Source of the DNA: Callorhinchus milii
Taxonomy: Eukaryota
NCBI RefSeq assembly: GCF_018977255.1
Contig: NW_024704742.1
Location: 15,626,001-15,690,000 of the forward strand
Direction of reading: 5' to 3'
Length of the DNA: 64,000 nt
Numbering within the stretch: position 1 is the stretch's first letter; every line of letters starts with the position of its first letter. The notes below the pieces were generated by a model that worked only from the letters and a program-made list of their open reading frames with translations, was not told the origin of the DNA and searched no databases. This document shows positions 56,595 to 64,000 of the stretch, piece after piece. Both the position numbers and the translations under genes were made by a program.

Positions 56595-58680
56595 TATTTA
56601 TCCTTACATTCGATATAGCACCTTTCACGTCAGCTGGACATCCCAGAGTGCTTCATAGGATATAGTTTGCAGTTACTGTTTTGTGGGAGAATATGGCAAT
56701 CAATTTGCGCACAACAATGTCAAATTTATTTGTGGAATTGTTGGCCGGGACACTGGGAGAAACATCCTTCTCTTTTCGAGTAGCGCCATGGGATCTTTAA
56801 CATCCACCTGAACAGGCAGACATTTTTAACATCCCTCACCTCCATCATTTCAAAAATGAAGTCCACCACCTACTCCATCGACCCCACCCCTCTCCTCACC
56901 TCCCAGCTCCACCTCCTGGCCCCTCTCCTAACCAACATTATCAATCTCTCCTTATCCATTGGCATTGTTCCCACCCCCTAAAAATAGCTGTCATCATCCC
57001 CATCCTCAAAAAACCTTCCCTGGACCATCCCTACTCTCCAGCTATTGGTTTATCTCCAACCTCCCAATCCTCTCCAAGGCCCTGGAACGAGTCGTTGTGT
57101 CCCTGCTTTGCTCTTTCCTAATCCGACATTCCCTCTCTGAACCTCTCCAATCGGTCAAAGTTACCAATGACATTCCGAACATCTGCGACCAGGACTCTCT
57201 CTGCCTCCTGTCCTCCTCAACCTCTCTGCTGCCTTTGACACTGTCGACCACCACTCTATCCTCCTACACCGCCTCTCCTCTCAGCTCAATCTTCGCGGAC
57301 GTGCCCTTGCCTGGTTCAAATTCTACCTCTCCCACCACCTAGACTTTGTTGCCACTAACGGCTTCTCCTCCAGCCCCCGCACCGTCACGTGTGGTGTCCC
57401 TCAGGGATTTGTCCTTGACCCTCTCCTTTTCAATATCTATATTGGTGACATCCCCAGACATGGGGTCAACTCCCACATGTATGTAGATCACACCCAATTC
57501 TACCTCTCTGCCTCCATCCTTGATTGCAGGACCACAACTGTCCTCACAGACTGCCTGTCAGACATCAAGTCCTGGATAAGAGCTAACTTCCCGCAGTTGA
57601 ATGTCAACAACGCCAAAGCCCTCCTGCCTGGCTCCCATCTGCACCTCCATACCTCGGGCGCCGATAGCATCTCCCTCCATGGATGTACACTACATCTCAC
57701 GGAGCCAATACGGAACCTTGGCGTCCTGTTTGACCCTCAGCTATCCTTCATACTCCACATCCATGCCATGACCTGCTCCACCTTTTCCCACCTCTGCAAC
57801 ATCACTCGTTTCACACCACAGGCCGCCGAGATCCTCATACAAGCGTTCATAACATTCAGACTCGACTACACAAACTTGTCAGCCTCCTCAACTCCTCTCT
57901 CCATAAATTGTAGATCATCCAGAACTTTGCAGCCCGTGTCCTCTCCCACACCAGGCTCTGCGACCCTACCTCCCCATCCTCGTCCGACTCCACTGGCTTC
58001 CCATCACACAGAGGATACAGTTCAAGATACTGGTCAGCGCCTTGGGACGTCCTTCCGACGTGAAAGGCGCTATACAGATGTAATCTTGTTGCAGTTGTTG
58101 GTCCTCAATTTCAAAGCCCTCCATGGCCTTGCTCCTCCCTAGTTCTGTAACCTCCTAACGCCCTACCAACCTGCATGCTCCCTCCACTCAGCGGCCTCCA
58201 GCCTGCTTCACGCCCCCTGCCTCGCCCGCGCCACCATTGGCAGGTGGGCCTTCAGCCACTCTGCCCCCACCCTCTGGAACTCCATCCCTCAGTCCCTATG
58301 CCTTGTCCCCTCCCTTCCCTCCTTCAAGACCCATCTCAAGCCCCTCCTCTTTGACCATGTCTTCGGTCACCTTTCATCCCCCCCTGCCCTCCACCCTCCC
58401 CAATCCCCAGCTTGGGTCTGAAACATTTATTGTCCAGCGCCCCTGATTCCATCTCGGGTACGAAACACTGATTGTCCAGCACCTTGGGAGATCCTCCCGA
58501 TGTGAAAAGCGCGATACAAATGTAGTTGTGTTGTTGTTGCTGAAGGACAGCACCTCCAACACCGCAGCACTGCAATGGAATGTCATCTTAGACTATATGA
58601 ATTCCAAGTCCCAACATAGGGCTCAAACTCACAAACTTCTGACTCAGAGGAAAGAGTGCTATGAACTGAGCCAGGCTGAA
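56595..58680 (-). mobile_element. Old Deu-type SINE split into 56595-56830 and 58541-58680 by the L2 insertion
   Basis: The two halves are colinear with the intact copy at 27055-27440. Confidence 0.75.
56830..58540 (+). mobile_element. L2 LINE ORF2 fragment (RT) nested in an old SINE
   Basis: ISNLPILSKALERVV, GVPQG-like, YVDHTQFY, RNLGVLFD; (TTG)n tail. Confidence 0.92.
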
Positions 58681-59239: not shown

Positions 59240-60920
59240 GGCAACAACAACAACACTTTGCATTTATATAGCACCCTTCACGCAGGGTAGTGTCCCGGAA
59301 CACTTCACAGTTGTTGAATCTGACAATCAGCCAGGTGGAGGGAGGTGACCGTAAGCAGGATCAAAAAGGAAGGTCTTTAGGCGGGATCTGAAGGCGGGGA
59401 GGGGGCAAGGGAAGGTCTTCAGGCGGGTATGCAACATGAGAGGAGGAGGAGGAGGAAGCAGCATCCAGGCGGATGTTATCTGTGTTAGAGACAAAGAAGT
59501 CTGAGACTTCTTTCAACTTGGTATGGGGGGAGGTGAGGCTGGAGGAGGCATGGCGGAGGTGGCGGCAGGAGGAGGCATGGTGGAGGTGGTGGCAGGAGGA
59601 AGCATGGGGGGAGGTAGCGGCAGGAGGAGGCATGGCGGAGGTGGCGGCAGGAGGAGGCATGGCGGAGGTGGCGGCAGGAGGAGGCATGGGGGGAGGTGGC
59701 GGCAGGAGGAGGCATGGGGGGAGGTAGCGGCAGGAGGAGGCATGGGGGGAGGTGGCGGCAGGAGGAGGCAGGTGGAGGTGGCGGCAGGAGGAGGCATGGG
59801 GGGAGGTGGCGGCAGGAGGAGGCATGGGGGGAGGTGGCGGCAGGAGGAAGCATGGGGGGAGGTGGCGGCAGGAGGAGGCATGGGGGAGGTGGCGGCAGGA
59901 GGAGCCATGGGGGAGGTGGCGGCAGGAGGAGGCATGGGGGAGGTGGCGGCAGGAGGAGGCATGGGGGGAGGTGGCGGCAGGAGGAGGCATGGGGGGAGGT
60001 GGCGGCAGGAGGAAGCATGGGGGAGGTGGCGGCAGGAGGAGGCATGGGGGGAGGTGGCGGCAGGAGGAGGCATGGGGGAGGTGGCGGCTGGAGGAGGCAT
60101 GGGGGGAGGTGGCGGCAGGAGGAGGCATGGGGGAGGTGGCGGCAGGAGGAGGCATGGGGGAGGTGGCGGCAGGAGGAGGCATGGGGGGAGGTGGCGGCAG
60201 GAGGAGGCATGGGGGGAGGTGGCGGCAGGAGGAGGCATGGGGGAGGTGGCGGCAGGAGGAGGCATGGGGGGAGGTGGCAGCAGGAGGAGGCATGGGGGGA
60301 GGTGGCGGCAGGAGGAGGCATGGGGGGAGGTGGCGGCAGGAGGAGGCAGGAGGAGGCAGGTGGAGGCGGTGGCAGGAGGAGGCAGGTGGAGGTGGTGGCA
60401 GGAGGAGGCAGGAGGAGGCATGGCGGAGGAGGAGGCAGGAGGAAGCATGGCAGAGGAGGCAGGAGGAGGCATGGCGGAGGTGGCGGCAGGAGGAGGCAGG
60501 AGGAGGCATGGCGGAGGTGGCGGCAGGAGGAGGCAGGAGGAGGCAATGGCGGAGGTGGCGGCAGGAGGAGGCAGGAGGAAGCATGGCGGAGGAGGAGGCA
60601 GGAGGAGGCGGCAGGAGGAGGTGGCGGAGGTGGCGGCAGGAGGTGGTGGCGGAGGTGGAGGAGGCAATGGCGGAGGTGGCGACAGGAGGAGGCAATGGCG
60701 GAGGTGGCGGAGGCAATGGTGGAGGTGGCGACAGGAGGAGGAGGAGGTGGAGGAGGCAATGGTGGAGGTGGCGGCAGGAGGAGGCAGGAGGAAGCATGGC
60801 GGAGGAGGAGGCAGGAGGAGGTGGCGGAGGTGGAGGAGGCAATGGCGGAGGTGGCGACAGAGGGGACAGTTGGACGTTGGGATTGTGTTTGTTCTGGAGA
60901 ATGACCTGTGGGGAGAAGAC
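59240..60920 (-). mobile_element. L2-type LINE fragments surrounding the minisatellite (3' tail at ~59240-59410; ORF2 segments at 59440-59530 and 60860-60920)
   Basis: Minus-strand peptides ILQNKHNP..LSPLSP and LTSPHTKLKEVSDFFVSNTDNIR resemble the L2 ORF2 endonuclease-RT linker; (TTG)n tail at ~59243. Confidence 0.6.
59525..60860 (+). repeat. G-rich minisatellite, 27-29 bp unit GGAGGTGGCGGCAGGAGGAGGCATGG(C/GG/GGG), degenerating to shorter GGAGGAGGCA-type subunits at the right end
   Basis: Directly visible tandem array. Confidence 0.97.
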
Positions 60921-61372
60921 CATTAAAGCTGTGGGGTCGTGGCCGCTGTTTATGGGGACAGAGACCCCCCCCCACAGACCCGCGGGGTCTTCTCCCCACA
61001 AACAGACCCGCGGGTGAGTTCACTGTAAGAGTTGCGCAACACATTAAGTGCAAATAATTCGTAACCCGTTAACCGCAACAAGTCATTACCGTGTGAACGT
61101 CACAGCTGCTCGCGCCTGTGCTGGCGGCCAGGGACGGTATGACGTCATCAGGGCGCGCCAGCCTCCGCTCGGTGACGCACTAAACCGTGCGCCCGGCAGA
61201 CGCTCCAATGTGGGCGGGGTCTCAGCCGTCGCTGCTGCTGCTCGGTGTGCTGGACTGGGCCGGGCGGGCGCCTCATTTTTTTATTAAAAAAATGGAAACC
61301 CGCAACACATTTTAATTTGTTTGTTTGTAGTCCCCCCGCCCGCACCCCCTTCATCCGAAGAGCTTCTCTTAC

Positions 61373-61440
61373 CGGTTTCGAAACGCATTGACCCTAAATC
61401 GGGCAACTCTGCCGCCGGCCACAGGGAGGCGACGCCTGAC
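61373..61440 (-). other. ACOX3: Candidate non-coding exon 1 of ACOX3 (5' end undefined)
   Basis: Minus-strand donor CCG|gtaaga at 61373/61372 inside the CpG island; a second candidate donor ACG|gtaatg at 61090/61089. Confidence 0.45.
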
Positions 61441-61738
61441 ATTGGGCTACTTTTGGGCGACAAATCGCAATTTCTGGCGCACTCGATCGGAGGCGACGCA
61501 TAGTTTTGGGCTACTTTTTGGGCTGGCGTTTGGCTGCACGTCGTAATTTCTAGCAAAACCCTTTTTTTGGTGCGGCGGCGGCGGCGGCACTGAATGTGGG
61601 GCTACTTTGGGGCCCGGACTTTGGGCTATAAATTGTATTGTAATTTCTAGCAAAACCCCCCGTTAGGAGGCGACACGTGATATTACGCTCGTGTTTGGGC
61701 GACTTTTGGGCTACAATCCTGTCGTGTCATTTCCAGCA
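61425..61738. repeat. Four degenerate tandem copies of a composite promoter motif
   Basis: GG(A/C)GGCG(A/G)C ... TGGGC(T/G)ACTTT(T)GGGC ... (A/C)ATTTC(T/C)(A/G)GC starting near 61425, 61489, 61580 and 61666. Confidence 0.75.
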
Positions 61739-61771
61739 CCTTCGGCAGGTGTGTGACCGGGAGACCCGGCG

Positions 61772-62228
61772 CTGGCGGCGGCGGAGAGGGCCAGACCGGC
61801 GCTGGCGGCGGAGCTGCGGCTCAGGCCGGGCCCGGGCTCGGGCTCGGGAGCCGCCGTGGCCGCCGCTTTCTGGTCGGCGCTCGACGTGTGGACTCTGAAG
61901 CCGCAGGTGGTCAACCGCCGCCTGTGGGGCTGCCGTGTGGACGGGGAGAGAGCGAGCGGCCGGGGCCCGGGTCTGGGCTCGGGGGAGAGGCCGGGGGTCG
62001 GGCGGCTCCTCCTGGACTTGCTGCCGACTCTGTGCCGCCGAGGGTCTGGCCCCGAGCTGGAGCGGGAGCTGGAGACGGTCCTGACCGGCCTCCGAGGCCC
62101 TGGCGAGGAGGAGGCGGCGGCGGCGGCGGGTCAGGTCAGCGCCATCCTCAGGACGGTGATGGCTAAAGGGCGAGGGTCCGGGGCCGGGGCCGGGCCGGGC
62201 AGCGCAGCCCGAGAGGTCGTGCTCAGAG
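61772..62228 (+). CDS. TRMT44: TRMT44 (tRNA (uracil-O(2)-)-methyltransferase) exon 1; start codon uncertain (CTG 61772 or CTG 61802)
   Basis: FWSALDVWTLKPQVVNRRLWGCRV resembles the TRMT44 N-terminal FWAAVEVWLERPQVANKRLCGARL (recalled human sequence); ILRTVMAK...REVVLR resembles VLRTVIPK...REIVVQ; donor AG|gtgggt at 62228/62229; head-to-head with ACOX3 as in human. Confidence 0.85.
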
Positions 62229-62312
62229 GTGGGTTGTGAGCAGATCACACCGAGTCATCTCAGTCATTCAAGAGCCCCGGTCCCGGCCCCGCTCCACCCG
62301 CTCTTTACAGTA

Positions 62313-62634
62313 TAATAATAATAATAATAATCCTCGCATTTGATATAGCGCTTTTCACGTCGGGAGGACGTCCCAAAGCGCTTCACAGAACACACTGTAA
62401 AGTAAATTGACTGTATATTTGTGGGCAAACGCGGCAGCCAATTGCGCACAGCAATGTCCCACAAACAGTCGTGGATTGAAAATGACCAATTTATTATTGT
62501 TTTGTTTTGGAGGATTATTATTAGGCTCTGTGTGGAGTAAGGAAACTTGCCCAAGGTCTCGCCCTCTGCCTGGAATTGAACTCAGGTCTCTCACTTGCAA
62601 AGCGAGTGCTCTAACCACTGAGCTACAGGACTCC
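62313..62634 (-). mobile_element. tRNA-derived SINE, young short subfamily, nested in a plus-strand SINE 3' fragment (62302-62723)
   Basis: Host motif ctttacagta|tattctgtgaagcgc is split by the insert. Confidence 0.9.
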
Positions 62635-63224
62635 ACAAATATTCTGTGAAGCGCTTTGAGACGTCTCGAAGACGTGCTAAGGCGCTATAATCAAATGCAA
62701 GGGTTATTATTATTATTATTATTACTCTCACGCCCACATGCAGATGGATCCCTTGGCTTCTGGCTTCCACCTCTCTGACCTGCTCACAACCCACACCACA
62801 CCCAACGGCATCTTCAGTCAGTTGGGCTCCCAGAGGCAGTGGGGGACACACAGGCAGTGTGGAGGATGACAGGGAGCGCGGGAGGCACCGAGGAGCCTGG
62901 GGAGTGACGTCCCTTCGTCCCCTCCGCTCCGCTATCGGCGGCCGTGCTCTCAGCCACACTGCCCTGAATTTCTCTGTTTTGCTGCCTGTCTTCAAATCAT
63001 GTTGAAGACTTTTGTCTTGGACCATGCCTTCGGTCAACCCCCCCCCCCCCCCCGATCCTTTTTTTTGCAGCTTGGTGTGAAACCTCAATGCTGTTAAATG
63101 CTCAGAGGCACAACCTGGTGTGAAATGTGCTATATAATTGCATATTGTTGTATACCAGAGGAACGTCTCAAATGACTTCACCTGACTGACTTCTTTTTGC
63201 AGGTCAGGGGAGCGTTTCAATCTC

Positions 63225-63640
63225 GATCAGTCGCTAGCACTCCCACCTCGGAGTCAGAAGATTGTGAGTTCAAGCACCATGTTGGCACTTTGAGCTCACA
63301 GTTTAAGCTGACACCAGTGCTGGAATTGTGCTGCATTGTTTGATTGATGCCCTTCAGATGAGATGTTAAATTTAAGTACCTTTCCCGATTCAGGTGGACA
63401 TTAAAGACACCATGGCACTACTTGAAAAGAGAAGGGATTTTCTCCCGGTCTTCTGACCAACAATCCACATACAAATTCGGTTATTTATATCTTGGCTCTT
63501 TGTGGGTCATTGCCGTGTGCAAATTGAATGCTGTGTTTATCTACAAAATACAGTCAAAGCACTTACAGTGAATCCTGTGAAGCACTTCTGAGACATCCTC
63601 CTGACTTGAAGCTTTATATCAAATGCAATTTAATTTATTT
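63225..63640 (+). mobile_element. Old full-length Deu-type tRNA SINE
   Basis: tagcactcccacctcggagtcagaagattgtgagttcaag head; tgtgcaaattg body; tail. Confidence 0.78.
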
Positions 63641-64000
63641 CAATTCAAAAGGAAAATCTCAAGGTGATCATGGTCAGAAAGGTTTTTTTGAAGGTGGGGA
63701 GGGAGGGCGTAAGGCAAAGAGATTCTGGGGATGAATCATAAATTGAGTAGTACACCTAACATGACAGAACAGTCAATATAGAAACACATTTTGAAATTTG
63801 ATCATATTTATACAGTATGTATAAGTGTAGATTTTTAAATAAAACTTCTAGCCTATAGAAGTTTTTTTTTAAAAAATGCAATTCTTGGTAATCCTGGAAC
63901 CTCTAAACTTTTTAAAAAATTACTATGAAATTAAACATCACCCACAAAATATAGTCAATTCACTTTACAGTATATTCTGCAAAGAGCTTTGAAACGTCTC

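Follow-up and report, generated by a model that had tools for sequence, protein, structure and literature searches.

No ATG precedes the conserved N-terminus of elephant shark TRMT44: a candidate case of near-cognate translation initiation

On which codon does translation of TRMT44 begin in the elephant shark, Callorhinchus milii? The question arises in a 64,000-nt window of its 0.99-Gb genome (the whole stretch of DNA that was analysed, to which all positions refer, exons beyond it being given as window-equivalent positions), where 61757-62228 of the + strand is identified by its sequence as exon 1 of TRMT44, a putative tRNA 2'-O-methyltransferase whose activity the source names give only as 'probable' or 'putative'. 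This exon codes for the conserved N-terminal part of the protein, and no ATG precedes that part. The reading we favour, to which we give a probability of about one half, is that translation would initiate at a near-cognate codon, for which CUG 61802 is the most likely choice, and that AUG 62159 would be reached by leaky scanning.

An earlier note on this window, drawn up from the letters alone, had named the gene TRMT44, and the whole locus bears out the assignment. All exons align with shark TRMT44, and tblastn of two shark TRMT44 proteins (P0005, P0019) against the window and the next 20 kb returned ten ordered exon segments on the + strand; an exon 6.3 kb downstream on the same strand (window-equivalent 68520-68642) matches PF07757 (AdoMet_MTase) at 31.2 bits, the cut-off being 27. 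The two RefSeq proteins of the locus, XP_007889719.1 (P0123) and XP_042195423.1 (P0121), reach 113-114 bits with PF07757, the sole family above cut-off in the Pfam scan of proteins, a CCCH zinc-finger match in a shark TRMT44 protein lying below the Pfam threshold. A downstream exon, moreover, matches with 100% identity a Callorhinchus milii entry of UniRef that bears the name tRNA (uracil-O(2)-)-methyltransferase. The fold search of the AlphaFold model described below against PDB (Foldseek) gave three matches with E <= 0.001, and these and the rest of the listing were almost all class I methyltransferases or complexes; the PDB matches covered only the methyltransferase core, and none explained the N-terminal domain.

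Exon 1 lies in an open reading frame (ORF) of the + strand, 61757-62239, of which it takes up 61757-62228, from right after an in-frame stop to the GT donor at 62229-30 (AG|GT, 62228|62229), the acceptor of exon 2 being ttgcag|AT at window-equivalent 64495|64496. Independent data came from Logan contigs, namely X1 and X4 (spliced RNA of two studies, the 'RNA' labels of the runs being guessed) and X12 (a DNA run), and what is said here of their joints, loose ends and differences refers to the contig rows listed, with thousands more beyond. Contig X4 rec24 covers 61924-62226, then 64494-64618, then 65504-65726, while X1 rec2 covers 61826-62226 and runs on into exon 3; exons 1, 2 and 3 are spliced together in these contigs, and the region of the conserved Phe-Trp (FW) motif of exon 1 is therefore part of the processed RNA. 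The exon is single-copy, and a second, ATG-bearing copy elsewhere in the genome was rejected, the remaining genome matches all having an E of at least 0.8.

The frame of exon 1 is closed upstream by TGA at 61754-61756 (+), in frame with the ORF, and the 562 nt from 61597 to 62158 contain no ATG in any frame of the + strand, both of which had been remarked at the outset; the only + strand ATGs nearby are those at 61594 and 62159. Readthrough of the TGA, or an upstream in-frame ORF, was also considered and rejected, the nearest upstream ATG (61594) being in another frame and followed by no further ATG ahead of 62159. The first in-frame ATG (acggtgATGgct, 62159..62161, +) lies 97 codons beyond the F of the conserved motif at 61868, in line with the first estimate of about 100. 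In first-order Markov simulations of the same composition, the absence of ATG from all frames over 562 nt was mildly unusual (mean of 3.6 expected, P(0) = 0.026). The GC content of exon 1 is 78%, and over 61802-62158 it is distributed among the three codon positions as 0.78/0.61/0.90, against 0.53/0.61/0.51 when the non-coding DNA upstream is read in this phase; the periodicity is of the coding type and is absent from the upstream DNA.

Four sources agree on the absence of an ATG: the assembly, the older RefSeq protein XP_007889719.1, the X12 DNA contig and the RNA contigs. Contig X12 rec16 spans 61568-62303 with two substitutions (two are listed in this span, at 61686 and 62177) and 24 extra letters, and X1 rec1 (61212-61784) has four substitutions, three of them listed (61371, 61686 and 61693). 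The possibility of a base error, for which raw reads over 61750-61860 had been called for, was thus checked with independent DNA and RNA contigs, in which no base change is listed in 61751-61860. A base error is an unlikely cause of the missing ATG, and the older protein, which has the same Leu residues as the window and no Met, counts against it. The lengths of triplet repeats in exon 1 (61775-61786, and others such as 62105-62127) do vary, the older protein having three more Ala in the (GCG)n run and the contigs differing by +9 (X1), -6 (X4) and +24 (X12) letters; these differences look like in-frame length polymorphisms, the indels not being located exactly.

What the ATG-less frame encodes was compared with other TRMT44 proteins. 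The orthologues were reached via the downstream exon because the N-terminus by itself offers too little length and complexity for a search: phmmer of 61757-62227 against 1.84 billion representative proteins gave 0 matches at E <= 0.001, and searches for longer homologous proteins found none at E <= 0.01 among 8000 candidates scored with 61757-62227 and none among 989 candidates with 61802-61954. With the two shark proteins, tblastn followed a single frame from 61802/61811 to 62227 (E ~2e-15) with no frameshift over 139 aligned codons. Within it lies the conserved N-terminal motif FWSALDVWTLKPQVVNRRLWGC (61868..61933, +), as defined in a 47-sequence alignment; the motif FWSALDVWTLKPQVVNRRL.GC, 97 codons upstream of ATG 62159, holds two residues invariant in the 47 vertebrate sequences, W136 and R146, and 11 further N-terminal positions are conserved in at least 90% of them. 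The elephant shark retains 12 of these 13 positions, the exception being G128, which is Ala.

All 19 orthologues examined start with a Met 15-49 residues ahead of FW. The FW pair stands at residue 16-33 in the 10 chondrichthyans among them; in a primate its place is residue 20, where the earlier note had given about 20 for human TRMT44. It would stand at residue 23 if the elephant shark protein began at CTG 61802. The segments LAERELRL of sharks and MERELPL of a ray align to LAAELRLR of the window, and the columns of the orthologue start Met project to 61784-61808, depending on whether MAFFT or tblastn is used. As to whether CTG replaces the ATG of other chondrichthyans at the same column, the projected interval brackets CTG 61802, and an exact column match is not claimed. 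Elasmobranch orthologues have AUG in place of the near-cognate start. No other holocephalan TRMT44 was present among the matches listed (best 120 of 561) or in the exon 1 protein searches, and the seven records placed from a run of another organism (X11, 80% likeness) fell on 31-letter words or within an intronic repeat, and exon 1 received none of them.

The same alignment bears on the downstream ATG. In tblastn, ATG 62159 aligns to the Ile of LRTVIPK in sharks, where the window reads LRTVMAK, so that by its alignment it is an internal residue of a conserved LRTV(I/M)xK strand. The AlphaFold2 model, made for the older full-length protein XP_007889719.1 with the 47-sequence alignment, has a mean predicted local distance difference test score (pLDDT) of 62.8, and of 74-90 over residues 91-160; its N-terminal elements are a predicted strand at 106-113 (ALAAELRL), a helix at 122-138 carrying the FW motif, and strands at 147-157 and 218-227, the conserved motif FWSALDVWTLKPQVVNRRLWGC comprising helix 122-138 and strand 147-157 at pLDDT 84-90. 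The Leu of CTG 61802 is residue 107, at the beginning of the first predicted strand, and the Met of ATG 62159 is residue 226, inside strand 218-227, after which come the strands encoded by exons 2-3. According to the model, translation from 62159 would cost the protein three elements and the greater part of a fourth (strand, helix, strand and part of 218-227), and translation from GTG 61856 its first strand.

Which near-cognate codon might be used was considered for four in-frame candidates. The two CTG codons pointed out previously, at 61772..61774 and 61802..61804 (+), do share a duplicated context, both lying in ccggcgCTGgcg with G at -4, -3 and +4; the third CTG (61814..61816, +) and the GTG at 61856..61858 (+) are additional to those described before. 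The contexts of CTG 61772 and 61802 are identical because both sit in a 30-nt in-frame tandem duplication (61766..61795 / 61796..61825, +) whose copies are 77% identical, each holding ccggcgCTGgcggcgg, and are both present in the older RefSeq protein as well. A start at CUG 61772, in the first copy, would place FW at residue 33, and its downstream region has a predicted folding energy, dG(+17..+61), of -23.2 kcal/mol (rank 56 of 480), compared with -27.8 kcal/mol (rank 10 of 480) for the favoured CUG 61802. CTG 61814 has a poorer context, with C at +4, and a value of -18.6 kcal/mol. GTG 61856, four codons before FW, stands in an exact Kozak context (gccgccGTGg) and shares with CTG 61772 and CTG 61802 a purine at -3 and a G at +4, but its predicted downstream structure is weak (-13.3 kcal/mol, rank 446 of 480), and the resulting N-terminus would be shorter than in any of the 19 orthologues examined.

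The available text of PMC5778536 reports that CUG efficiency rises about 10-fold with G at +4, that a purine at -3 helps and that C is better than G at -4; in the reporters described in the available part of PMC11165317, CUG initiation depends on a stable structure lying about +17 to +32, optimally at +23 to +26, and the stability thresholds range from -15 to -22 kcal/mol. For CUG 61802, folding of the downstream sequence predicts a hairpin spanning +15 to +53, whose 9-bp core is all GC and starts at +25, and the 120-nt fold has -73.6 kcal/mol (z = -2.45). The proposal that these features favour CUG initiation is accordingly upheld in part: G at -3 and +4 is present and a stable downstream structure is predicted, but the context is weak evidence, the two copies are a single duplication and CTG is abundant. 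The context of CUG 61802 and its predicted hairpin fit near-cognate initiation and are not strong alone in an exon with 78% GC.

Under the favoured reading, the ancestral ATG would have been lost from exon 1, whose conserved N-terminal elements are still encoded in frame, and ribosomes scanning the ATG-free leader would initiate at a near-cognate codon to give the full-length protein. CUG 61802 would be the best candidate for this role by virtue of G at -3 and +4, the stable GC hairpin predicted at about +15 to +53 and a position like that of the starts in sharks and rays; CUG 61772, its duplicated copy, and GUG 61856, with its perfect Kozak context, would be the alternative starts. Ribosomes missing the near-cognate codons would reach AUG 62159 and produce a second, N-terminally truncated protein, corresponding to the current RefSeq model, and such leaky scanning is expected because no AUG of any frame separates the candidate codons from 62159. 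The sequence itself, the splicing of exons 1-3, the conservation and the missing ATG in independent data are observations; the presence of 61802 in the mRNA, the use of a near-cognate codon and the choice among the candidates are inferences.

Several observations weigh against this reading. In the same kind of simulations, neither a run of 134 codons without an in-frame ATG (P = 0.84) nor a frame without in-frame stops (P = 0.23) goes beyond what composition leads one to expect, so that the finding draws its weight from what is encoded and not from counts of this kind. The contexts of CTG 61772 and 61802 are one duplication and cannot count as two separate signals; no codon is commoner in this stretch than CTG and GGC, with 11 of 119 each; stable downstream structure is found at nearly every position of the exon (mean -18.4 kcal/mol over 480 positions); and the -4 base of CUG 61802 is G, less favourable than C according to the available text of PMC5778536. 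The current RefSeq annotation on the same assembly starts at ATG 62159. Regarding the extent of the RNA, the listed spliced contigs begin at 61826 (X1) and 61924 (X4), both downstream of CUG 61802, and none of those listed bridges 61785-61825; the ends of an RNA cannot be read off contigs, and it is in this very interval that (GCG)n varies in length and contigs would break. The sole upstream contig, X1 rec1, has a depth of 13, compared with 89 for the exon contig and 3-5.6 for X1 intron contigs, and may represent pre-mRNA, another transcript or DNA; a main transcription start near 61826 would leave only GUG 61856 or AUG 62159 available, and a minor spliced form could have been missed outside the contig rows listed. 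Conservation, finally, records past selection, and the ATG may have been lost recently, leaving an untranslated remnant behind.

This last consideration leads to the rival that survives best, a tentative one which we hold to be somewhat unlikely, namely that AUG 62159 is the true start, that with the loss of the ancestral ATG the first ~120 residues are missing, and that the conserved sequence ahead of it has become a remnant that is no longer translated, within the 5' untranslated region. In the leader no AUG comes before AUG 62159, which has a strong context (acggtgATGg) and is the start of XP_042195423.1 (552 aa, current on the same assembly), a protein that begins MAKGRGSG... and is without the conserved N-terminus. 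The beginning of the listed spliced contigs downstream of the CUGs, the chance expectation of the open frame and the usual inefficiency of near-cognate initiation (as given in the available text of PMC5778536) speak for it too. Against this, M226 replaces an Ile in a conserved and confidently predicted strand, with conservation continuing across it, and the protein would lose three or four elements of its N-terminal domain while the rest (exons 2-3) is still 71-82% identical to sharks. The 12 of 13 intact N-terminal positions, the lack of frameshifts over 139 codons and a GC content at third codon positions far above that at second positions upstream of the ATG likewise argue against an untranslated remnant. 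The missing N-terminus of the current model is likely an annotation defect. At its other end (exon at window-equivalent 81896-82012 and beyond), XP_042195423.1 diverges from all orthologues after ...LLRNNYQ and finishes in 60-odd unrelated residues, without the conserved C-terminal Cys/His cluster that Ensembl-derived and older RefSeq proteins retain, and the current model may thus be wrong at both ends.

A stricter form of near-cognate initiation can also be envisaged, in which functional TRMT44 would come solely from CUG: the 30-nt duplication and GC-biased evolution would have erased the ATG, leaving an obligate near-cognate start aided by the hairpin, and the truncated AUG product would be a by-product. 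We regard this as rather unlikely. If GC-rich first exons of this slowly evolving genome were to lose their ATGs by such a route more widely, annotation pipelines would systematically truncate the genes concerned.

Still less likely is that an upstream exon with an ATG is spliced in after the TGA, for instance at the AG of 61762-63, giving an ordinary AUG start and a lineage-specific N-terminal extension. The earlier note had held that an upstream coding exon does not easily rescue the frame, on the grounds that the obvious acceptors precede the stop; the AGs at 61735-36 and 61747-48 do lie before the TGA, but it had overlooked the AG at 61762..61763 (+), past the stop, which is the acceptor implied by XP_007889719.1, and its dismissal of such an exon is too quick. 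In this older RefSeq protein (791 aa), the junction ...GGGGGG|DPALAA... fits an exon starting at 61764 in phase 1, seven AGs lie between the stop and the FW motif, and a joint could have been missed outside the contig rows listed. The first ~90 residues of the protein are, however, the translation of a 28-bp minisatellite (28/55-bp units, 59400..60860, + translation; Tandem Repeats Finder run on 60000-64000 places period 28 and 55 arrays at 60000-60860), and residues 1-90 match many registers of 59550-60842, the repetitive ORFs spanning 59361-61019. The AG at 61762-63 has no polypyrimidine tract, the 20 nt before it being 40% pyrimidine, and the corresponding value for all seven AGs is 30-45%; X1 rec1 is collinear with the genome across 61764, where no joint or loose end occurs among the rows listed. 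The newer RefSeq model on the same assembly has dropped the exon, and such an extension is present in 0 of the 19 orthologues examined.

That a true ATG within 61757-61867 is concealed by a private allele or by an error of sequencing or assembly is very improbable, for while the region has 78% GC and its triplet repeats differ in length (three Ala in the older protein; contig indels of 9, 6 and 24 letters), the older protein was derived separately and has no Met, the two substitutions listed for the X12 contig covering the region and those listed for X1 rec1 lie elsewhere, and the indel by which the protein versions differ lies in a repeat and has a length divisible by three.

The sequence around exon 1 is rich in repeats. 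The minisatellite at 59400-60860, whose ATGs the older RefSeq model took over for a TRMT44 first exon, is GC-rich on both strands, with periods of 28 and 55 bp and ~77% matches, and its six-frame translations contain open frames of 430-550 residues that are either Pro/Ala/Ser-rich or Gly/Arg/Glu-rich. It is preceded by an open frame of 323 residues (57171-58142, +), reverse-transcriptase-like, which judged by eye looks like a fragment of a long interspersed nuclear element (LINE). Immediately ahead of exon 1, in CpG-rich sequence presumed to be the promoter, 61425-61710 consists of four to five degenerate copies of a ~64-97-bp unit (GGAGGCGAC...GGGCTACTTTTGGG...GTAATTTCTAGCAAAACCC); X12 DNA depth over this interval is 2-5x the single-copy level, and related copies therefore exist elsewhere in the genome. 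A TATAAA stands at 61627-61632. In intron 1, a tRNA-like element (Rfam RF00005, 40.2 bits; 62566-62628, -), the only hit in the Rfam scan of 60800-64000, lies within a repeat of about 62340-62640 that has extremely high depth in every run compared, that of the other organism (X11) included; the element is presumably a tRNA-derived short interspersed nuclear element (SINE).

Non-AUG starts of this general kind have been described. Conserved non-AUG-initiated N-terminal extensions exist in human coding sequences, where a downstream in-frame AUG is predicted to be reached by leaky scanning in the absence of out-of-frame AUGs, according to the available text of Ivanov et al. (2011; PMC3105428). 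Elephant shark TRMT44 resembles the cases presented there in having conserved coding sequence before the first in-frame AUG, an in-frame stop as boundary and a near-cognate codon with a purine at -3 and G at +4; it differs in that the non-AUG codon of those cases is conserved over many species, whereas here a single species was examined and the orthologues have AUG. The TRMT44 start would consequently be a lineage-specific replacement and not a conserved non-AUG start. The names TRMT44, METTL19 and C4orf23 are absent from the main text of PMC3105428, as far as this source was available, and no paper in the library searched links TRMT44 with non-AUG initiation. With regard to START CUG initiation (Tidu et al., 2024, the available part of PMC11165317), the likeness lies in the GC hairpin predicted past CUG 61802, whose -27.8 kcal/mol is beyond the threshold of -21.6 kcal/mol, and the difference in that this is a thermodynamic prediction only, in a 78% GC exon, with the base of the hairpin at about +15, nearer than the optimum of +23 to +26. 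A non-AUG start of TRMT44 would be a further case of a known phenomenon, not a new mechanism.

Compared with TRMT44 of sharks, rays and bony vertebrates (e.g., P0005, P0019, P0058), the elephant shark gene shares the exon structure, the GFWxAxxVW..PQV.N.RL.G motif, the LRTxxPK strand, the PF07757 core and the C-terminal Cys/His cluster, and stands apart in having no Met codon where 19 of 19 orthologues carry a Met 15-49 residues before FW. Both RefSeq models describe the same locus with the same exons from 2 onward, and each is given an AUG start; unlike the reading favoured here, the current one drops the conserved N-terminus, the older one adds a minisatellite exon via a weak acceptor, and neither is non-AUG. 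If a near-cognate start is used, the gene is a warning that ATG-forced gene models can lose conserved N-termini in GC-rich first exons.

Should the short form prove to be the only product, the conserved N-terminal elements of TRMT44 would be dispensable, which would bear on the function of this uncharacterised domain. If near-cognate initiation is correct, a conserved housekeeping tRNA-modification enzyme of a key reference vertebrate would depend on non-AUG initiation, its reference annotation would be a truncated protein without residues that are invariant from sharks to mammals, and the gene would offer a datable case of an AUG start replaced by a near-cognate codon in one lineage.

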